Below, piece by piece: positions 1-31,456 of a stretch of DNA of 31,456 bases (within the stretch, counting starts at the first letter, position 1; each line of letters starts with the position of its first letter). Source of the DNA: a virus; the IMG/VR virus record IMGVR_UViG_3300045988_128093, positions 1-31,456 of that record. One strand, written 5' to 3'. The notes under the pieces were generated by a model that saw only the letters and a list, made by a program, of their open reading frames with translations, had not been told where the DNA came from and searched no databases. Made by a program: the position numbers and the translations under genes.

Positions 1-55
1 AAAAATATTAATAAAACTATTGACATATACGGCAATGCGTGTTAATATAATTACA
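1..55. repeat. Terminal direct repeat, copy 1 (identical to 31402..31456); most likely a circular-assembly overlap
   Basis: Compared base by base: the 55 nt aaaaatattaataaaactattgacatatacggcaatgcgtgttaatataattaca are identical at both window ends. Confidence 0.95.
21..49 (+). promoter_or_regulatory. Sigma-A type promoter driving the micro-peptide/HTH cassette
   Basis: TTGACA (21-26), 17-nt spacer, TG at 41-42, then TAATAT (44-49), an extended -10. An RBS (GAAAGGAGG) and the ATG at 72 follow. Confidence 0.6.
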
Positions 56-71
56 GAAAGGAGGTAGAAAG

Positions 72-182
72 ATGAGAAAGAAAAAAAGCAGCAACAAGGC
101 TGAAATGCTTAACCTCATCACTGCAACTATCAATTTGATAGCGTCCATAGCTACATTGATTATAGCAATAAGATATGGTTAA
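72..182 (+). CDS. 36-aa membrane micro-peptide (MRKKKSSNKAEMLNLITATINLIASIATLIIAIRYG); type I toxin / holin-like toxin architecture
   Basis: Manual translation; below the 60-aa cutoff of the ORF track. GGAGG lies 7 nt upstream of the ATG. Basic N-terminus followed by one predicted TM helix. Confidence 0.55.
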   Translation: MRKKKSSNKAEMLNLITATINLIASIATLIIAIRYG

Positions 183-187
183 GGCAA

Positions 188-207
188 GGGGGATAACACA
201 ATCCCCC
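188..207 (+). other. Intercistronic GC-rich hairpin (GGGGGAT / ATCCCCC, 6-nt loop)
   Basis: Perfect 7-bp stem between the two micro-ORFs. No U-tract, so it is not a canonical terminator. Confidence 0.4.
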
Positions 208-228
208 GCTCATCTAAAAAAAGATAAA

Positions 229-312
229 ATGAAGATATTAGCAATAACATTAAGTAGCATAGCGATTGTATTATCAATCTGTTCTATCATTGTTACTTTA
301 AAAAGGAGATAG
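229..312 (+). CDS. 27-aa membrane micro-peptide (MKILAITLSSIAIVLSICSIIVTLKRR); type I toxin-like
   Basis: Manual translation: a single TM helix ending in KRR, the layout seen in Fst/PepA1-type toxins. The RBS is weak, so this is less certain than the first peptide. Confidence 0.4.
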   Translation: MKILAITLSSIAIVLSICSIIVTLKRR

Positions 313-317
313 CTATA

Positions 318-497
318 ATGGAACTAAAGGAAATGCGAAAGCTTCTTGGATTATCACAATCAGCATTTGGCAAAAGATACAACATACCTGTAAGGACAAT
401 TCAAGATTGGGAGAGTGGTCGTAGAAAAGCCCCCATATATGTTCTTGAATTATTAGAAAGAGCAGTCGTTGAAGACTCAAAAGCTGAAACATATTAA
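318..497 (+). CDS. 59-aa XRE-family helix-turn-helix protein
   Basis: Manual translation: MELKEMRKLLGLSQSAFGKRYNIPVRTIQDWESGRRKAPIYVLELLERAVVEDSKAETY. Typical HTH_3 motif (LGLSQ..FG....TIQDWE.G). RBS AAAGGAG upstream. Confidence 0.75.
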   Translation: MELKEMRKLLGLSQSAFGKRYNIPVRTIQDWESGRRKAPIYVLELLERAVVEDSKAETY

Positions 498-513
498 TTA
501 TGTATTTACGATG

Positions 514-546
514 AAAAGAGAGACGATTAAGTCTCTCTTTTTTATT
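514..546 (+). terminator. Rho-independent terminator of the micro-peptide/HTH cassette
   Basis: Stem AAGAGAGAC (516-524) / GTCTCTCTT (531-539), 6-nt loop, then a T-run. Confidence 0.8.
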
Positions 547-581
547 GCAAAATTGACCTCCTATTGTGATAATAGTGAAGA

Positions 582-613
582 AGAGCGAGCCAGTCGCAGG
601 CCCGCTCTTTTTT
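582..613. terminator. Second terminator hairpin, possibly bidirectional, between convergent units
   Basis: AGAGCG-a-GCC (582-591) pairs with GGC-c-CGCTCT (599-608), followed by T6 on the plus strand. An A-run precedes it as read on the minus strand, directly after the RHH stop codon. Confidence 0.65.
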
Positions 614-764
614 ATTTCTTTAACTCTTCAACCTTTTCGCTCACTAGCAACTCTATGTAGTTACTGAGCGACCTATTTTCGCTAGAGGCTAGCTCTGTTA
701 CTGCCTCCTTGAGTGACGGTGTAAGTCTTACCGCCACTCTTTCTGTTCTCTTCTCTTCTCCCAT
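612..764 (-). CDS. 50-aa ribbon-helix-helix (CopG/Arc/MetJ-type) DNA-binding protein
   Basis: Manual translation of the minus strand: MGEEKRTERVAVRLTPSLKEAVTELASSENRSLSNYIELLVSEKVEELKK. Classic RHH pattern (beta strand RVAVRL, then two helices). RBS AAAGAGAGGG. Not in the ORF track (<60 aa). Confidence 0.8.
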   Translation of the reverse strand: MGEEKRTERVAVRLTPSLKEAVTELASSENRSLSNYIELLVSEKVEELKK

Positions 765-778
765 AATATTCCCTCTCT

Positions 779-1387
779 TTAAATAAAATCGACGATATCG
801 TCAAAATCAATTAATTCAATGCGTGTAGCTTTTGAATAATCTAAATCTTCAATGATCGTATCATTATCAACGTCATAATATGCCTTATACACACCGTCAG
901 AGGTCACAACGTACTGATAAAAATCATTACCATCAAAGCATTCGTCCCAACCGAACATATCACCGATTATATAATCGCCATTTTCAGCCGTAACCGTCAT
1001 ATGTTCAGGTATTCCGTACTTGTTGCGGAACTTATCACAGTGATATTGTTCTAGTGAATATTTGTCAAGTGGTGCAAACTCGCCAATCTCATTAGTATTA
1101 GATATAAAATCTCCGTCCTCATCTACAACTTGTGATTGTAAATAAATCTCCTCAATTTCCAAGTTTTCACCGACATAACCATAATTAGAATGATATTCAG
1201 CAAAAGCCTTTTTTGCATCGTCTAAATTCTCAAACTGTGCCAAAAGTTCAGCGCCATCTTCACAGCCTATTATACTTCCCGGTATATAATTCTTTATTTC
1301 GTCCCTTTTAAATCTTCTGCTCAATTCCTTGTCGTATCTGTATATTGCGTATATAGTTCTTTCCATCGTTTTATCCTCCTTGAGCAT
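779..1387 (-). CDS. Highly acidic protein of unknown function (195-202 aa)
   Basis: ORF track. Two plausible starts, each with a good RBS: 1387 (GAGGAG) and 1366 (AAGGAGGA). Very rich in D/E. I recognise no motif. Confidence 0.7.
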   Translation of the reverse strand: MLKEDKTMERTIYAIYRYDKELSRRFKRDEIKNYIPGSIIGCEDGAELLAQFENLDDAKKAFAEYHSNYGYVGENLEIEEIYLQSQVVDEDGDFISNTNEIGEFAPLDKYSLEQYHCDKFRNKYGIPEHMTVTAENGDYIIGDMFGWDECFDGNDFYQYVVTSDGVYKAYYDVDNDTIIEDLDYSKATRIELIDFDDIVDFI

Positions 1388-1412
1388 TTCGCTCTCCTCT
1401 TAACTTGTCTAC

Positions 1413-1441
1413 AGTATACACCTATTGTCGAACATTGTCAA
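1413..1441 (-). promoter_or_regulatory. Sigma-A type promoter for the acidic-protein/RHH operon
   Basis: Minus strand reads TTGACA (1441-1436), exactly 17 nt, then TATACT (1418-1413). The spacer holds a tandem TTGACAAT / TTCGACAAT. Confidence 0.6.
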
Positions 1442-1698: not shown

Positions 1699-2715
1699 TC
1701 ACATCAATGCAGCAGCTTGATTTATTAGCTCGAAATCAACGTGTGTATATATGTTGGCAGTCATAGCTATATCGGCATGGCCCATTAGATATTGAGCTGT
1801 TCGGATATCAACACCGCGCTTCTGTAAGTTGGTGCAGAATGTATGGCGCAAAGAGTATGCAGATATATCAGTTGCGAGAGGATAAGGCGGCAAGAGTTCA
1901 TTGCGATATACCTTGCACCCCATATCTATATTCATTAGCCTAGATAAGTGCGCCCAGGCTCTCCGCTTATTATCCTTGTTCAGTTCTTTGCCTTGCTGAT
2001 TTTTGCAAAGCAATTCGAACGGAGATAATTTGCGCGGTAACAATTTAGCGAGGCCATCAACGATAGGCACATATCTATCTGCTGCCTTTGTTTTAGTTCC
2101 GCGAATATGTAAATATCGCTCACCATCTCGCATGACTATATCACGAAATTCAACTGCAGAGGCTTCGGAAGGGCGGCATCCCGCATAATACATCAATGCG
2201 AAATATACGGGCACATAATGTTGATTAAGTACATTCAAGAAGTGCTGTTCTTCTGATGTAGTTAATGAGCGTCTAGGATTGTAATAGCCAGAAGGCTTTA
2301 CAAGATTTTCAGTAGGATCTATATTGATTAGCTTGTTGATTTTCGCATATTTGAAAATAAAACGCAGCATCTGATATGTATCATTGATAGTTGCTTTTGA
2401 TTTAGAGCCTTTTAAATTCAAAACGCGCTGACACATGATAGGAGTTACATCCTTAATCAATAAAGCACCAATCTCATTGAGCACATATGATTTTAGCTTC
2501 TGCAAATACTTCTCGCGTGTTATTTCGCTCTGATTTACCTTGTAGGTATCAACGCATTCAAGCGCCCATGATGCAACAGTGCGCCTTGCTGGATTCAGCA
2601 CCTCATCGCGCTCAAGCGCCTGTTTCTTCAAAATGAGCTTTTCGATAGCAGCACGCTCGGTTTTTCCGCGCACAAAATAGCGCTTGCCATTGTATGTAAA
2701 TGTTTTAGTAATCAT
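1699..2715 (-). CDS. int: Tyrosine recombinase / phage integrase
   Basis: 338 aa. The C-terminal catalytic region carries RPSE...R, SLRHTFCTNL and LMGHADIAMTANIYTHV (the R-H-R-Y signature). Confidence 0.95.
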   Translation of the reverse strand: MITKTFTYNGKRYFVRGKTERAAIEKLILKKQALERDEVLNPARRTVASWALECVDTYKVNQSEITREKYLQKLKSYVLNEIGALLIKDVTPIMCQRVLNLKGSKSKATINDTYQMLRFIFKYAKINKLINIDPTENLVKPSGYYNPRRSLTTSEEQHFLNVLNQHYVPVYFALMYYAGCRPSEASAVEFRDIVMRDGERYLHIRGTKTKAADRYVPIVDGLAKLLPRKLSPFELLCKNQQGKELNKDNKRRAWAHLSRLMNIDMGCKVYRNELLPPYPLATDISAYSLRHTFCTNLQKRGVDIRTAQYLMGHADIAMTANIYTHVDFELINQAAALM

Positions 2716-2747
2716 TAAGGACCTCGATTAAATAAAAAGTTGTTTTT

Positions 2748-3533
2748 TTATTCTTCGATTTCGTCGTCTTCTGTTACTTCAGATTTCTTTTCCGCTGACA
2801 GGCTTTCATTCTTTTTCACATTATTCTTTACCCAACATGTTTGAACTCCATCAATATGTTCTTTTAAAGAATCGGCAATACTTGACATGCCCATTGGATC
2901 AAGTATAACATCAATGCCTTCGCGACGAGCAACCTTTGCCGCTGGAACAAAATCACTATCTCCTGCAATTAAAATTATTTGGTCAACTTGTCTTCTGTAT
3001 GCAAGAGATGCTATGTCAATTCCTAATTTCATATCTACACCTTTTTGCCTCCAGCTAGGAGAAAAATCCATCTCTGTTAAATCATCTAGTGTGATTTGGT
3101 TATGTAATAAAGCTTTCATTCTGTCTGGCTTAATTGCGAAGGTCGCACCGGAATCAAGCAGATAACCTTTACGAAGACACATTTTTCGCTGCTCCTTGAG
3201 GTAACTAAAGAATTCCAGTGTCCATTTATATGTATCTGTTTTCTCAAAATCTATATTTTTCTTTAAATAAGGATGATAGACAACCTTGGATAATGGATTA
3301 CAGTCATAATAGAATATTCTATAAAGTTGTCTATCAGAACCAACGCAGTCCTTTGGATGAAGTTGTTTATTATCAGAATAAATATAAACATCATTTGTTC
3401 TAACCTTTTGTATATGCGACATACAATAGGCGTATAATTCGTTGGCTCTTGATTTAGGTTCTTTATGTCCCCAACGAGTTGCGGCTCTTTTTCTATAAAA
3501 ACCACCATCAACAAATATAGCTGTTTTGTTCAT
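2748..3533 (-). CDS. NYN-domain (LabA/PIN-like) putative ribonuclease with an acidic C-terminal tail
   Basis: N-terminal AIFVDGGF and KGVDMKLGIDIASLA...IILIAGDSDFVPAAKVARREGIDV match the NYN (PF01936) acidic-residue pattern. RBS AGGAGG. Confidence 0.75.
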   Translation of the reverse strand: MNKTAIFVDGGFYRKRAATRWGHKEPKSRANELYAYCMSHIQKVRTNDVYIYSDNKQLHPKDCVGSDRQLYRIFYYDCNPLSKVVYHPYLKKNIDFEKTDTYKWTLEFFSYLKEQRKMCLRKGYLLDSGATFAIKPDRMKALLHNQITLDDLTEMDFSPSWRQKGVDMKLGIDIASLAYRRQVDQIILIAGDSDFVPAAKVARREGIDVILDPMGMSSIADSLKEHIDGVQTCWVKNNVKKNESLSAEKKSEVTEDDEIEE

Positions 3534-3544
3534 TAATACCTCCT

Positions 3545-3605
3545 AAAATTAAAAGCTCTAGACCTCAGCCACACCCATATCCGCGGGTTGCCTACTATCT
3601 AGAGC
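3545..3605 (-). promoter_or_regulatory. Terminator-like structured leader upstream of the NYN gene
   Basis: On the minus strand, GCTCTAGA ... TCTAGAGC (8-bp closing stem) encloses an imperfect inner hairpin (GGCAACCC / GGGUGU). It is followed by CUUUUAAUUUU and then the NYN RBS. Confidence 0.45.
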
Positions 3606-3626
3606 AAAATAAACTTTATTATTAAT

Positions 3627-3663
3627 GTACACGAAGTGTACCACTCCAGACACAAAAAGTCAA
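3627..3663 (-). promoter_or_regulatory. Candidate promoter (TTGACT-17-TACACT) overlapped by the perfect palindrome GTACAC-GAA-GTGTAC
   Basis: -35 at 3663-3658 and a weak -10 at 3640-3635. The 15-bp palindrome at 3627..3641 overlaps the -10, like an operator. Confidence 0.35.
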
Positions 3664-3684
3664 TATATAAATATGTTTTTTTAT

Positions 3685-4104
3685 TTACTTTTTCACCTTT
3701 TCAAGCTTTATTGTCTTTTCTACACCCATTGCAGAGGCTTTGTATTTGATATATTTGCCGTCGTAAGTAAATTCTTTTGTATCGTCTTGAGATGCCAATA
3801 AAGAGCTTTCATGCTTTTCTTTATTAGCTGTTGAAGTCCATTTATAAACCTTCGTATGTTTTGTTGGCTTTTCATACGTTCCAGACCAATATAGAGCCTT
3901 CGTGTCATCGCTCATCCAATAGATCTCAATAGTATCATCTGTAACGGTCGCTTGCTGCCATCCATCTTCGTCTCCGTTGACTTGCTTCCACTCGCCAGTT
4001 AGGTTATATGGCTTCTTTGGCTTGGATGCTTTCTGCTTGCTATTGCAAGCTGTCGTTCCAAATACAACGGCTAGAATTACTAATAGAGTGATTAATTTCT
4101 TCAT
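3685..4104 (-). CDS. Prophage lipoprotein (candidate superinfection-exclusion protein)
   Basis: Start moved to MKKLITLLVILAVVFGTTAC (signal peptide plus lipobox Cys), with RBS AAAGGATGAG. It sits between the immunity genes and int. Confidence 0.75.
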   Translation of the reverse strand: MKKLITLLVILAVVFGTTACNSKQKASKPKKPYNLTGEWKQVNGDEDGWQQATVTDDTIEIYWMSDDTKALYWSGTYEKPTKHTKVYKWTSTANKEKHESSLLASQDDTKEFTYDGKYIKYKASAMGVEKTIKLEKVKK

Positions 4105-4168
4105 AATATTCTCATCCTTTCTTAAACACAGAGCAGGTCCCAACACTCTATAAACGACAATCAATTAC

Positions 4169-4420
4169 CTAAACGCACAGTGGTGATGCTGTTGTGTGAT
4201 GCCTTAATCCCTCAAGCTCATCAATAGACATCATAGAAGAGAAATCACAGTTGCTGATATGCTCCAGCTCGTGTGCATAAGATGAGCGGTGCCGCTCTGC
4301 GGTATCTCTGGCATTTAAAATAATAGTGTAAAAAATCTCACCATTCGCATCTATGCAATAAGTTGTAACACCATGCACACGATGCGGAAGGTCAATGAAT
4401 TTAACTTGAATGCAGTTCAT
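4169..4420 (-). CDS. immA: Short ImmA/IrrE-like zinc metallopeptidase (anti-repressor protease)
   Basis: HEXXH motif (YAHELEHI). Its start overlaps the upstream XRE repressor stop by 1 nt (TAATG). The repressor lacks an S24 domain. Confidence 0.6.
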   Translation of the reverse strand: MNCIQVKFIDLPHRVHGVTTYCIDANGEIFYTIILNARDTAERHRSSYAHELEHISNCDFSSMMSIDELEGLRHHTTASPLCV

Positions 4421-4791
4421 TAATCTTCATCTCCGAATTGGTCTTTTTTTAACTTTTCAAGAATAGAAGCAACGCTCAATATATCTTCTTTAGTCACATT
4501 GCGCGAAGCATCAAATAGCACCTTTAATTCTGGGCGCTCGTACATCTCTTTAGCGGCTTCTGCTGCATCTGGATCTAAATAATACGTTGATTTATTTTCT
4601 CTACCGAGCAAATAATCAATAGATACATTGAAAAAATCAGCAATCTCTTCTTGGCTCTCAAAACTTGGCTTGCGATCACCTGTTTCATATGCACCAATTA
4701 ACGATTTTGAAACTCCGAGCGCCTTTGCAAGAGAAACTTGCGAATAACCGCGCTTTATTCTTAATTCTTTTAAAACATCTTTAAATTCCAT
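4420..4791 (-). CDS. XRE-family CI-like repressor (ImmR-type)
   Basis: Start moved to MEFKDVLKELRIKRGYSQVSLAKALGVSKSLIGAYETGDRKPS (HTH_3). Divergent from the Cro-like gene. Confidence 0.85.
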   Translation of the reverse strand: MEFKDVLKELRIKRGYSQVSLAKALGVSKSLIGAYETGDRKPSFESQEEIADFFNVSIDYLLGRENKSTYYLDPDAAEAAKEMYERPELKVLFDASRNVTKEDILSVASILEKLKKDQFGDED

Positions 4792-4829
4792 TTTGCAATT
4801 TCCCTTCCTTATATACCCACATATAAAGT

Positions 4830-4912
4830 ACACCTAAAGTGGAATAAAAGCAATAAAAAATCACTAAAAGTGGAAAAAAGTACTTGACACCCACTATGAA
4901 TGGACTTATACT
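4830..4912. promoter_or_regulatory. Immunity switch region: PR promoter plus three related 13-bp operators
   Basis: PR is TTGACA (4884-4889), 17 nt, TATACT (4907-4912). The operators resemble CCACTAAAAGTGG and lie at 4830-4842, 4861-4873 and 4891-4903, the last inside the PR spacer. Confidence 0.65.
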
Positions 4913-29612: not shown

Positions 29613-29915
29613 ATGAAGCCAGAATTCATAGGAAGCTTGATTATTGGACTAACAATGTTAATTGGATTAATTTCTGCGTTAAATAATTATGTGGGAAAGC
29701 CCGTTAATGAGCTGAACGCATCAATCAAGGCTCTCAATGTGAGAATTGAGAATCTTGCAGCAGATGTAACAAGTGTTGAATGTGCAGTAAAAGAGCAAGA
29801 GGCCCATGATAGAGAGTCGCATTCTAGGATGTGGGACAAGCATAACCAACATGATGATCGTTTAAACGACCATGAAAAGAGAATCACGCATTTAGAACAT
29901 AGGAAGGAGAATTAA
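29613..29915 (+). CDS. xhlA: XhlA-like membrane protein (lysis accessory)
   Basis: N-terminal TM helix followed by a coiled coil (NELNASIKALNVRIENLAADVTSVE...HEKRITHLEH). Immediately upstream of the holin. Confidence 0.55.
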   Translation: MKPEFIGSLIIGLTMLIGLISALNNYVGKPVNELNASIKALNVRIENLAADVTSVECAVKEQEAHDRESHSRMWDKHNQHDDRLNDHEKRITHLEHRKEN

Positions 29916-30314
29916 ATGATGAGTGTTGAAGTTATTTCAAAGATGTATATTCCGTTAGTGCTAGTATTTTGTCTTTGTATAGGATATATATTGAAAAAGT
30001 TTATGCCGACTGATAACAAAATAATCCCAACGGTACTTTTTGTTATCGGAATGGTGTGCGGCGTTATTTGTCTAGGCGTTAGCTTCGAAGCAATCGTGAA
30101 GGGCGGTGTTACAGGACTAGCAGCAACGGGCTTCCATCAGATGTTTAAGCAACTAATCGAAGGCTCAAAAAAAGACGATACAAAAGAATTTAAGATGCCA
30201 GCGCCAGCAGACGAAAATAAAAATATAAATGAAGAGGCTATTGCGGAGAATTTAAAAAGAGCAGAGGTGTTAAGCGATGGGGAAGAGGGAACAAATAATC
30301 AACACCGCCATTAG
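29916..30314 (+). CDS. Holin
   Basis: Predicted TM helices plus a charged C-terminal tail. It lies directly upstream of the endolysin and overlaps it. Confidence 0.65.
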   Translation: MMSVEVISKMYIPLVLVFCLCIGYILKKFMPTDNKIIPTVLFVIGMVCGVICLGVSFEAIVKGGVTGLAATGFHQMFKQLIEGSKKDDTKEFKMPAPADENKNINEEAIAENLKRAEVLSDGEEGTNNQHRH

Positions 30315-31248
30315 ATATAATGGCATGGCATTCAAGGGCGGGTCACACCGCACCTTGATTGATGTTTTCAACAAATATAAACCAGATGGCGCACCAATGA
30401 CATACACCGCCAATTTTTGCGCTGCATGCGCATCTGCAGTAGCATACATATGCGGCCTTGGCGATGCATATCCGTGTTCATACAATGTTGGAACGATTGT
30501 GCGGAAAGCGCAGCAAATGGGCATCTGGGTTGAAAACGACAATTTCACACCATCACCAGGAGACTGGATCATCTATGATTGGAATGATGATGGAAGAGGC
30601 GACAACACCAGAGGTGCTAGCCACGTTGGAATTGTCGTATCAGTTAGCTCTGGGATGATTAATGTGTTCGAATTCAACATCGGAAATCGCCACACGACAG
30701 GATATAGAAGAGTAGCCATCAATGGGCGATTTATTCGAGGTTTTGTGCATCCAAATTTTCAAACAACAGGCTGGATACAAGACAACGTCGGGTGGTGGTA
30801 TAGAAAATCTGATGGCAGTTATCCCAAGAGTACATGGCAACAATTCGATGGCGAATGGTATTATTTCAACGAACATGGATACGCAGTAACAGGCTGGCAG
30901 CAGATTGATGGCAAGTGGTACTATTTCGGAATAAATTGCAAGATGCAGATAGGTTGGCAATCAATCAATGATAAATGGTACTTCCTAGATCCAACAGAAG
31001 GCAGCATGTACGGAAATGGTGTGCATATGATTGAGGGGAAGAATTATTTCTTCAATTCTAGCGGGGCTATGCAGACAGGCTGGCAAATGATTGATGGCGA
31101 ATGGCAGCATTTTGAATCTGATGGCGCTCGTACAGAGAAGGGCATCGTGAAGGGCGATAAAATTTACATCATCAAAGATGGAAAGCTAGTCACAAATGAT
31201 GATGTTGAAGTACGAGCGAATGAGCAAGGGGAAATCTCTGTGAAGTAA
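30277..31248 (+). CDS. Endolysin: N-terminal CHAP/NlpC-P60-like amidase plus C-terminal cell-wall-binding (CW_binding_1) repeats
   Basis: Catalytic Cys context FCAACASAV and His context GASHVGIV. About six repeats of the GW..(I/F)DG(K/E)WYYF type. Confidence 0.85.
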   Translation: MGKREQIINTAIRYNGMAFKGGSHRTLIDVFNKYKPDGAPMTYTANFCAACASAVAYICGLGDAYPCSYNVGTIVRKAQQMGIWVENDNFTPSPGDWIIYDWNDDGRGDNTRGASHVGIVVSVSSGMINVFEFNIGNRHTTGYRRVAINGRFIRGFVHPNFQTTGWIQDNVGWWYRKSDGSYPKSTWQQFDGEWYYFNEHGYAVTGWQQIDGKWYYFGINCKMQIGWQSINDKWYFLDPTEGSMYGNGVHMIEGKNYFFNSSGAMQTGWQMIDGEWQHFESDGARTEKGIVKGDKIYIIKDGKLVTNDDVEVRANEQGEISVK

Positions 31249-31259
31249 AAGAGGGTAAA

Positions 31260-31349
31260 ATGAACAAGCTAATTGATGGCATAAACTTCATCTTGATTAA
31301 TGCACAAGTAGGCATTGAGCTAGGTGCAACAGGATGGAGCTTTTTCTAA
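31260..31349 (+). CDS. 29-aa peptide (MNKLIDGINFILINAQVGIELGATGWSFF)
   Basis: Manual translation. RBS AAGAGGG 5 nt upstream. Followed by a strong terminator. Function unknown. Confidence 0.4.
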   Translation: MNKLIDGINFILINAQVGIELGATGWSFF

Positions 31350-31356
31350 ACAAGAC

Positions 31357-31390
31357 AAAAGAGAAGCCGCGTGCTTCTCTTTTTTTATTG
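31357..31390 (+). terminator. Rho-independent terminator of the late/lysis operon
   Basis: AAAAGAGAAGC-cgcgt-GCTTCTCTTTT, followed by TTTTATT. Confidence 0.85.
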
Positions 31391-31401
31391 CAAATTTTTT
31401 T

Positions 31402-31456
31402 AAAAATATTAATAAAACTATTGACATATACGGCAATGCGTGTTAATATAATTACA
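31402..31456. repeat. Terminal direct repeat, copy 2 (identical to 1..55)
   Basis: Exact 55/55 identity with the window start. Confidence 0.95.

Follow-up and report, generated by a model that had tools for sequence, protein, structure and literature searches.

A conserved, probably autoregulated operon of two predicted membrane micro-proteins and a small DNA-binding protein in temperate phages

Phage 'morons', of which HK97 gp15 and lambda rexAB/sieB are examples, are cassettes of promoter, gene and terminator that are expressed from the prophage. The cassette analysed here, at positions 20-547 of the virus record IMGVR_UViG_3300045988_128093 (IMG/VR; 31,456 nucleotides (nt), the whole of which we call the window), resembles them in its autonomous promoter and terminator, in its location at the end of a genome arm and in being present or absent among related phages (the prophage end L019 lacks it). 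It differs from them in that it consists of two micro-proteins, encoded by the open reading frames ORF1 (36 amino acids, aa) and ORF2 (27 aa), together with a putative dedicated repressor, a 59-aa helix-turn-helix (HTH) protein, and a conserved inter-cistronic hairpin.

Small stand-alone repressors of the ribbon-helix-helix (RHH) or HTH type autoregulate the toxin and partner operons omega-epsilon-zeta and paaR2-paaA2-parE2, in which the regulator comes first, the toxins are soluble enzymes and the antitoxins are proteins. The cassette shares with these three-component toxin-antitoxin systems the separate small repressor and the interchangeable DNA-binding module, but its regulator is encoded last, its other products would be membrane helices of 27-36 aa, and its toxicity is only predicted. 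With toxin-first type II operons such as HigBA and MqsRA it has in common a putative effector encoded before the HTH gene, coupled or overlapping genes and a probable operator in the promoter, and the HTH motif IPVRTIQDWESGRR gives a sub-threshold match to MqsA-type antitoxins (TIGR03830, 27 bits against a cut-off of 61.8). However, the HTH protein of the cassette is without a toxin-binding domain, and the effectors would be membrane peptides rather than RNases. In Bacillus subtilis, SdpC is processed from a 203-aa secreted precursor, and SdpR is an ArsR-type regulator sequestered by SdpI. That system resembles the proposed one in combining an autorepressor with a toxin that is a hydrophobic peptide and with an immunity protein in the membrane, and an SdpI-family gene follows an ORF1-like sequence in host DNA (see below), but secreted-precursor processing and SdpR sequestration set it apart from the cassette.

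In size and build the peptides recall the type I toxins of Clostridioides difficile prophages (CD0977.1/RCd11 and relatives), which are 34-53 aa long, have a hydrophobic helix, a Lys/Arg-rich end and an AGGAGG Shine-Dalgarno (SD) sequence, reside in temperate phages of Clostridia, are monocistronic and controlled by antisense RNA, and have been proposed to stabilise prophages (PMC7699646). The cassette agrees with these in peptide size, hydrophobic helix, basic end, AGGAGG SD and presence in a temperate phage of Clostridia, but it encodes two peptides together with a putative protein repressor, lacks a conserved antisense unit and is not similar to them in sequence. None of our literature searches retrieved a description of this arrangement. 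The kinds of element to which it belongs, prophage accessory cassettes and toxin-antitoxin-like operons, are already known, and it does not amount to a new category of system; what it represents is a micro-protein operon that is conserved, mobile and probably autoregulated and that has natural variants of operator and repressor specificity. An earlier, sequence-only reading of the window had described a near-consensus promoter, a 36-aa and a 27-aa hydrophobic micro-ORF, an XRE-type HTH gene and a GC-rich hairpin between the micro-ORFs, all of which are present as described, and had suggested a toxin-antitoxin, abortive-infection or superinfection-exclusion module. Its observation is confirmed and its interpretation partly supported, and the present analysis adds a probable autoregulation, a regulator that can be exchanged (XRE or RHH) and the intact survival of the cassette in a prophage remnant.

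Micro-ORFs, regulator and putative operator

The same layout, a terminator-bounded strong promoter followed by a peptide gene, a hairpin at its stop codon, an SD-less peptide gene, a gene for a tiny DNA-binding protein and a terminator, was found in four divergent lineages: (1) the Mogibacterium-phage type, which includes the window, (2) L129-L132, (3) L012 and (4) L119/L120/L124-126. ORF1 (72..182, plus strand) encodes a 36-aa single-pass membrane peptide that begins with MRKKKSSNKAEM, continues with a predicted transmembrane (TM) helix at residues 15-33 and ends in RYG, and its SD, AGGAGG at 59-64, lies 7 nt upstream. ORF2 (229..312, plus strand) encodes a single-pass peptide of 27 aa with a predicted TM helix at residues 3-21 and a C-terminal KRR; it has no SD, either here or in any of the four lineages. 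Mean Kyte-Doolittle hydropathy over 19 aa is 2.30 for ORF1 and 2.59 for ORF2, the net charges are +5 and +4, and both peptides have basic ends. A longer, 45-aa frame for ORF2 beginning at ATG 175 was considered and rejected: indels in an A-run (216-222) destroy it in relatives, and ORF2 therefore starts at 229.

Selection was assessed on cassette alleles, 18 of them distinct, that were collected from contigs in IMG/VR, ENA and Logan. For close alleles the pooled in-frame ratio of non-synonymous to synonymous polymorphism (pN/pS) is 0.23 for ORF1 and 0.15 for ORF2, as against 0.67-10 in shifted frames (0.67-2.6 for ORF1), and the variable sites of ORF2 are distributed 6/1/15 over codon positions 1/2/3. 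Against the distant L129, in which ORF1 is 69% identical and synonymous divergence amounts to 0.6-0.8, the ratios are 0.35 (ORF1) and 0.31 (ORF2), giving an overall range for both micro-ORFs of 0.15-0.35 in frame and mostly 0.55-10 off frame. ORF1 and ORF2 thus appear to be translated, selected single-pass membrane peptides. ORF2 was absent from the called genes on every contig fetched, and a phmmer search against 1.84 billion representative proteins returned only the family itself and the L129 homologue (P0090, 69%). Searches of Pfam, NCBIfam and PHROG gave no match for either peptide at E<=1 apart from a holin profile (phrog_35473, E=0.023), and in PADLOC-DB 2.0 the peptides had no match and the HTH protein only a generic one (HTH_VI, E 7.6e-5).

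The promoter is of the sigma-A/sigma-70 type and occupies 20..48 on the plus strand, with TTGACA at 20-25, a 17-nt spacer and TGtTAATAT at 40-48; the promoter scan credits it with 10/12 consensus matches plus an extended -10 element. It is kept in the four lineages (11/12 in L012, 12/12 in L119, TTGACA-17-TGgTAATAT in L129). The third gene (318-497, plus strand) encodes the 59-aa protein of the XRE family, of which residues 3-49 align to positions 1-47 of the 55 in the PF01381 (HTH_3) profile (41.4 bits against a cut-off of 23, E 1.5e-10); its pN/pS is 0.18 over the pooled cassette alleles, and its SD is formed by the last codons of ORF2, AAA AGG AGA (Lys-Arg-Arg).

A probable operator, TACGGCAATGCGTGT, lies within the promoter spacer at 28..42, as suggested by covariation between spacer and HTH protein. 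Spacers of the type ...GGCAATGCGTG(T/G) always go with Gln29-Asp30 (QD) in the HTH protein, those of the type ...GCCAA(T/C)GA(C/G)TGG (GCCAATGACTGG) always with Glu29-Gln30 (EQ), and ...GTCAATGTGTG occurs with Gln29-Glu30 (QE); this matching has zero exceptions in 13 distinct haplotypes from ~40 loci. From the alignment with 434-type repressors we take residues 29-30 to be base-contacting positions of the recognition helix. At the same spacer position L012 and L119 have perfect palindromes, ACACGCAtTGCGTGT and CACGCAaTGCGTG respectively, and the RHH variant L129 has a different palindrome, GTATATAC. Markers in ORF1 and ORF2, which lie between the promoter and the HTH gene, are shuffled and occur with more than one spacer class. 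Because spacer and recognition-helix alleles co-vary while the intermediate markers are shuffled, the last gene most likely encodes the operon's own repressor, which would bind an operator inside the promoter and exert negative autoregulation. Elsewhere in the phage only one partial copy of the putative operator was found: CAATGCGTGT at 817-826 repeats 10 nt of it, inside the 3' end of a 202-aa gene and ~55 nt upstream of the start of an RHH gene, and may be a second HTH site or a chance occurrence (~0.06 expected).

Relatives of the HTH protein also occur outside such cassettes. A chromosomal paralogue (L017-L021, match at 4001-4174) is 83-88% identical, includes both QD and EQ alleles and has no accompanying peptides; it lies upstream of the gene for a 641-aa membrane protein and of rsmE, and its upstream flank is variable, being a prophage lysis end in L019. 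A search for operator-like sites near this paralogue found none. More distant relatives (L013-L016 and most of L022-L096) have no TM peptides upstream, and the association is therefore confined to phage cassettes. The Streptococcus phages PH15 and Javan273, in which the same HTH motif occurs in 103-105-aa proteins near lysis genes, were rejected as carriers of the same cassette, there being no TM peptides. Two contigs of 518 and 562 nt with the HTH gene were rejected as transcript assemblies and are metagenomic fragments.

The inter-cistronic hairpin (183..210, core 188-207, plus strand) starts at the ORF1 stop codon and folds with a predicted free energy (dG) of -14.1 kcal/mol (z -3.4); in all lineages it begins at or within a few nt of that stop. 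Hairpins at the same position in L114, L129, L012 and L119 differ in their apical pairs and loops: the pairs are GGGGGAU/AUCCCCC or GGGGAG/CUCCCC, depending on the lineage, and the loops AACACA, AACGA, CCUCAAAA or GAAA. In the minimum free energy (MFE) fold of the whole mRNA (z = -4.1), AGAUGAG at 70-76, in the start region of ORF1, pairs with CUCAUCU at 209-215 directly 3' of the hairpin, and both segments are kept in L114. The window hairpin has no U-tract, and its counterparts in L114, L012 and L119 score weakly as terminators on one or both strands. The element could act in attenuation, processing or translation-coupled remodelling.

The cassette is closed by an intrinsic terminator at 509..547 (plus strand, dG -18.7 kcal/mol, z -5.9), directly after which the homology between relatives stops. 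The sequence-only reading had given it two tandem terminators. The second one, at 575..615, is bidirectional, folding on both strands (dG -21.3 and -19.9 kcal/mol), is common to a convergent operon, occurs only in relatives that have the RHH neighbour and lies outside the mobile cassette. The terminator scan missed both of them, part of each T-run being predicted as paired in an extended stem, although like the hairpin they fold far better than shuffled sequence. The region 545-615 also contains a promoter-like TTGCAA-17-TGtGATAAT followed only by the bidirectional terminator hairpin, and may yield a very short RNA or be a chance match; L001, L002 and L005 have ~60 extra nt in the corresponding region.

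Recurrence, mobility and chromosomal copies of ORF1

Cassettes of the Mogibacterium type stand behind three endolysin architectures, one with cell-wall-binding repeats and no CHAP match (the window and L106), one with CHAP and choline-binding domains (L104, L107 and L108) and one of the Amidase_2 type (L114-L117). The regulator is of the XRE family in three lineages; in L129-L132, where ORF1 has 37 aa and ORF2 29 aa, it is replaced by a 52-aa RHH protein. Longer peptides are encoded in the L012 and L119 lineages (48-49 aa with a Lys-rich tail, and 52-53 aa with two TM segments), and they agree with the window peptides in position and hydropathy. The ORF2 stop abuts or overlaps the regulator start in different ways, as TAGATG in L114, TAATG in L119 and ATGA in L129. 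In three lineages the cassette is found, in one orientation or the other, with the endolysin gene on one side and the integrase or the host junction on the opposite side; in L129 it is mid-genome.

Both borders of the cassette (31371-31394 and 533-549) carry TCTCTTTTTT(T)ATTGCAAA, that is, a terminator tail plus 8 nt, and the cassette-less prophage end L019 has a single copy of this junction, which suggests that the cassette may be gained or lost via recombination between terminator repeats. In L105 and L109 (~2600-4200) an intact cassette, with the -35 element mutated to CTGACA, is found in a ~1.6-kb prophage remnant beside tRNA-Ser. This remnant comprises two 75-aa ORFs, a truncated endolysin of which only the choline-binding part is left, and the cassette, and it is flanked by host acetate-kinase/serine-dehydratase genes on one side and glyoxalase/MerR genes on the other. 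In L114 (1281-2589) the space between endolysin and cassette is taken up by inserted genes for a SocA/Panacea protein (151 aa) and for a 299-aa protein whose TM segments are C-terminal. The two probably form a toxin-antitoxin pair of the PanA type in this same hot spot, and the site is therefore one that collects toxin-antitoxin or defence cargo. Beyond these relatives, nucleotide searches with the cassette found nothing among INPHARED phages in near and distant modes and only a 57-nt AT-rich match among PLSDB plasmids, and tblastn of the HTH protein against INPHARED gave only matches below 57% identity.

A metagenome scan for the ORF1 core revealed 16 chromosomal copies in Mogibacterium contigs (among L145-L174, e.g. 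L160 1195-1330, L156 and L169), which are without ORF2 and regulator. Each consists of a stretch of ~125 nt, 92% identical to window 75-199, directly upstream of a gene for a 105-aa SdpI/YfhL-family protein (PF13630, 53 bits). The shared stretch extends from the second codon of ORF1 into the hairpin, as far as its 5' arm; it is this arm that supplies the SD of the SdpI-family gene, and the fusion is at the hairpin loop. Full-length ORF1 is disabled in all 16 copies, and only at its 5' end, where ATG->ACG, shortening of A7 to A6 or A5 and a lost SD occur in at least five combinations; codons 8-36 remain open (pN/pS 0.14), and divergence from phage copies does not exceed that among phage copies. 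ORF1 is intact in every one of the ~30 phage-type loci recovered with their 5' end. The disabled chromosomal copies would fit an ORF1 product that is harmful without its partners. The chromosomal locus has the order PBP5, HTH79, 234-aa gene, 106-aa gene, ORF1-like/SdpI, FNT transporter and lies beside a prophage integration site (L175). One single low-coverage contig (L147, 6118-7350) runs from the lysis end of a phage through the cassette promoter and an intact ORF1 directly into the SdpI-family gene and host DNA; the join is either genuine, as a recombinant or an integration junction, or an artefact in which two sequences were assembled into a chimera over their common 125 nt.

Phage setting of the cassette

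Positions 1-55 of the window are an exact direct repeat of 31402-31456 (assembly overlap), so that the promoter is present twice, its duplicate being at 31421-31449. Since the contig ends are identical over these 55 nt, the window represents a circularly assembled complete phage genome of 31,401 bp. It is that of a temperate phage, with genes for a tyrosine integrase (1699-2715, minus strand) and a CI-like repressor (4420-4833, minus strand), and its long plus-strand structural block closes with holin-type ORFs (29613-30314) and an endolysin gene (30277-31248) with cell-wall-binding repeats. The host is a Mogibacterium or [Eubacterium] sulci, which are oral Clostridia, as judged from HTH genes with 83-88% identity in five Mogibacterium genomes and from a 93% identical protein named from [Eubacterium] sulci.

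Across the circle junction the gene order is endolysin, a 29-aa ORF, a terminator, the cassette, the convergent operon, attP and integrase. The 29-aa ORF (MNKLIDGINFILINAQVGIELGATGWSFF; 31261-31350, 3' of the endolysin gene) is conserved in L002 and L005, and analogues end in GWSCF (L019) and GWMML (L147). The terminator (31350..31395, plus strand, dG -14.2 kcal/mol, z -3.4, followed by a T-run) has a counterpart in all relatives and probably insulates the cassette from the late/lysis operon. With this terminator upstream and a strong promoter and a terminator of its own, the cassette forms a predicted unit independent of late transcription, as had been proposed in the sequence-only reading, and its position at the lysis-side prophage end, where L114 has the Panacea pair at the same spot, agrees with the idea of an end at which defence and accessory genes accumulate. 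The location at a lysis/attP junction that had also been claimed is right in that the cassette directly follows the lysis genes across the circle; attP, however, is ~1 kb away, with the convergent operon in between.

The probable attP core (1597-1645), directly downstream of the integrase gene, is the reverse complement of a tRNA 3' fragment with T-arm (GGTTCGAATCC), acceptor strand and CCA; ARAGORN called no full tRNA there. Among the relatives, L114 and L115 adjoin an intact tRNA-Lys(CTT), and L114-L117 integrate at tRNA-Lys. ORF1 itself as a general attP core was considered and rejected, given the tRNA-type attP beside the integrase of the window phage and the use of tRNA-Lys by L114-L117; the sole junction backing it is L147, which may be chimeric. 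The convergent operon (612-1441, minus strand), an autonomous cassette in its own right, has a promoter TTGACA-17-TATACT (1441..1413), an RHH gene (612-764) and a 202-aa gene (779-1387). Its 50-aa RHH protein is 53% identical to the RHH regulator of the L129 peptide cassette, and its 202-aa protein is without a family match. Between integrase and immunity region, a 261-aa NYN-domain protein (2748-3533, minus strand; PF01936; phrog_5783, E 5e-79) may be a nuclease-type accessory or defence gene product.

Possible functions of the cassette

The reading that we prefer, at a probability of roughly 0.4, is that of a toxin-antitoxin-like module of three components, with membrane toxin and membrane partner, expressed in the lysogen and gated by the repressor, which would serve addiction (prophage retention), abortive infection or both. 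The cassette would be a self-contained accessory operon, or 'moron', expressed in the lysogen, in which the strong housekeeping-type promoter produces one transcript covering ORF1, ORF2 and the HTH gene. The HTH protein would bind the spacer operator of its own promoter and keep all three products low and self-limiting. Both peptides would insert into the cytoplasmic membrane. The positive-inside rule would place the basic N-terminus of ORF1 in the cytoplasm, and with it the C-terminal KRR of ORF2, so that the two helices would run antiparallel. ORF1, with its consensus SD, would be well translated. For ORF2, which is SD-less and either adjoins or overlaps the gene of the regulator, synthesis would probably be low and tied to that of the repressor. 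The hairpin at the ORF1 stop would probably set the ratio of ORF1 to the downstream genes by attenuation, processing or translation-dependent pairing. Should repression be lost or the balance of the peptides be upset, the peptides would damage the membrane. The sequences themselves show the anatomy, the selection on both peptides at the protein level, the conservation in four lineages, the covariation of regulator and operator and the regulator exchange; that the HTH protein binds DNA, how the peptides lie in the membrane, in what ratios the products are made, whether they are toxic and what role they play are the parts of the scheme that we infer.

Several lines of evidence speak for a toxin. 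The exchange of XRE and RHH regulators around constant partners is typical of toxin-antitoxin operons, and we further count in its favour the selection on both micro-ORFs, their TM-grade hydropathy, the four-lineage recurrence, the covariation of spacer and recognition helix, the intact cassette in the remnant and the Panacea pair at the L114 site. The disabling of ORF1 in 16/16 chromosomal copies, located before a gene of the SdpI family, which is named for an immunity protein, would point in the same direction, as does the resemblance in size, charge and AGGAGG SD to the C. difficile prophage toxins (PMC7699646).

Other points weigh against it. A type II antitoxin combines a DNA-binding with a toxin-binding domain, whereas the HTH domain takes up 47 of 59 aa and the RHH counterpart has 52 aa in all; both are bare DNA-binding domains that leave no room for toxin binding, which rules them out as antitoxins of the classical kind. 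With a protein that only represses, post-segregational killing would require the peptides or their mRNA to persist for longer than the protein does. Toxicity, membrane localisation and transcription are predictions only, and the peptides match no toxin, holin or defence family in Pfam, NCBIfam, PHROG or PADLOC. In DNA as AT-rich as this, promoter-like sites occur frequently (13 found, 7.2 expected), and the case for the promoter therefore rests on its conservation; in L104 the promoter is deleted and the ORFs are retained. The covariation of spacer and HTH protein could in principle reflect linkage, although the shuffled intermediate markers argue otherwise, and the disabled ORF1 copies may do no more than show where a tract of recombination or homology ends, close to a hot spot of prophage integration. 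Finally, BLASTP gives no alignment between peptides of different lineages, so that homology between the Mogibacterium type and L012/L119 rests on synteny; a Smith-Waterman shuffle test of the cross-lineage peptides was non-discriminating, cross-controls being equally 'significant'.

The main rival, which we hold to be rather unlikely, is superinfection exclusion or modulation of the host membrane, in which non-toxic peptides would block DNA entry by other phages or tune a host membrane protein and the HTH protein would hold their dose constant. The constitutive-type promoter, the position at the prophage end beside the host junction in three lineages, the encoding of two selected membrane peptides and the existence of an established class of prophage accessory cassettes of such build are all in keeping with it. 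Known exclusion proteins are roughly 80-170 aa long, however, and thus far larger than these peptides, neither PADLOC nor PHROG gives a match, and tight autorepression, an SD-less ORF2 and disabled chromosomal ORF1 copies would better fit a dangerous product.

The chromosomal copies raise another alternative, namely that ORF1 is a membrane-damaging, cannibalism- or bacteriocin-like toxin released on lysis of some of the lysogens, from which ORF2 would protect the producer, a part that in the chromosome would fall to the SdpI-family protein. ORF1-like sequence directly before an SdpI/YfhL-family gene in 16 host contigs, disabled as in orphan-immunity loci, the joining of intact ORF1 and promoter to such a gene in L147, and the proximity of the cassette to lysis genes would agree with this. 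We nevertheless consider it improbable: genes for a leader, for export or for processing are absent, the helix of ORF1 is an ordinary TM helix and not amphipathic like a bacteriocin, L147 is possibly chimeric, and the SdpI family is broad and mostly uncharacterised.

Somewhat less probable still is that the HTH protein is itself the effector, for example in that it imitates a regulator of the host or acts as a second immunity repressor, with ORF1 and ORF2 as leader ORFs tuning its translation. Mogibacterium chromosomes do hold the closely similar HTH gene without peptides and with QD and EQ alleles, and the regulator gene has its SD or its start within ORF2. Yet it is the peptide sequences themselves that are under purifying selection, an unrelated RHH fold replaces the regulator while the peptides stay, no operator-like site was found near the host paralogue, and elsewhere in the phage there is only the one partial copy at 817-826.

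Control of one peptide's translation by a cis-antisense RNA, as in type I toxin-antitoxin systems, was implied by the type I toxin architecture that the sequence-only reading saw in the peptides. The architecture itself stands, in that ORF1 and ORF2 are both small hydrophobic peptides (<60 aa) with charged ends, the build of type I toxins; but profile searches in the Pfam, NCBIfam and PHROG libraries placed neither in Fst, TxpA, Hok, Ldr or other described families. A promoter-like TTGCCT-17-TGcTATAAT does lie on the minus strand inside ORF1 (187..159), the hairpin scores as a minus-strand terminator in L012, L119 and L114, and the ORF1 start codon is paired in the MFE fold. An antisense mechanism is unlikely because that promoter is found in one lineage only, not being conserved in L012/L119, and because an Rfam search (E<=10) gave only chance or terminator-driven matches; in addition, the distance from promoter-like site to hairpin is only ~10-25 nt in L012/L119, too short for an RNA, and a dedicated protein repressor would already explain the control of the operon. 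We give this possibility a slightly smaller chance than the preceding one. A signalling system of the RRNPP/SHP type does not match the bare 59-aa HTH protein without a TPR-like domain, nor the Lys-rich, non-hydrophobic end of ORF1 in L012/L119.

Least probable of all is a lysis accessory, that is, an antiholin or holin modulator preventing or timing lysis, for although the cassette lies beside the endolysin gene in three lineages, in either orientation, and has the one weak holin match on which the 'holin-like' label of the sequence-only reading would have to be based, it has its own promoter behind a terminator that separates it from lysis genes with holin candidates of their own upstream of the endolysin, is mid-genome in L129 and persists in a remnant without a holin.

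To return to the toxin module, one may go further and see in these loci an undescribed family of repressor-gated two-peptide toxin/partner modules, with XRE/RHH swap and conserved inter-cistronic RNA, at prophage ends in oral and gut Clostridia, in which ORF1 is toxic and the host keeps disarmed copies before an SdpI immunity gene. This extended version is doubtful, but if true it would mean a phage-host contest over a membrane peptide toxin, whether in addiction, abortive infection or cannibalism-like killing on lysis.

In any case, micro-proteins of <40 aa are routinely missed by annotation, and the cassette is a clean case of two demonstrably selected ones that matches no described system in Pfam, NCBIfam, PADLOC, PHROG or Rfam, as the sequence-only reading had anticipated. 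The repressor/operator pair provides a built-in genetic handle with natural variants (QD, EQ, QE and the RHH swap). If the peptides do nothing measurable, the cassette is one more uncharacterised prophage accessory cassette. If they are toxic or protective, they would establish a toxin-antitoxin or defence family that is new, acts on the membrane and is common in the phages of oral anaerobes that have received little study (Mogibacterium, [Eubacterium] sulci), and they would also provide a compact repressor-gated kill switch.

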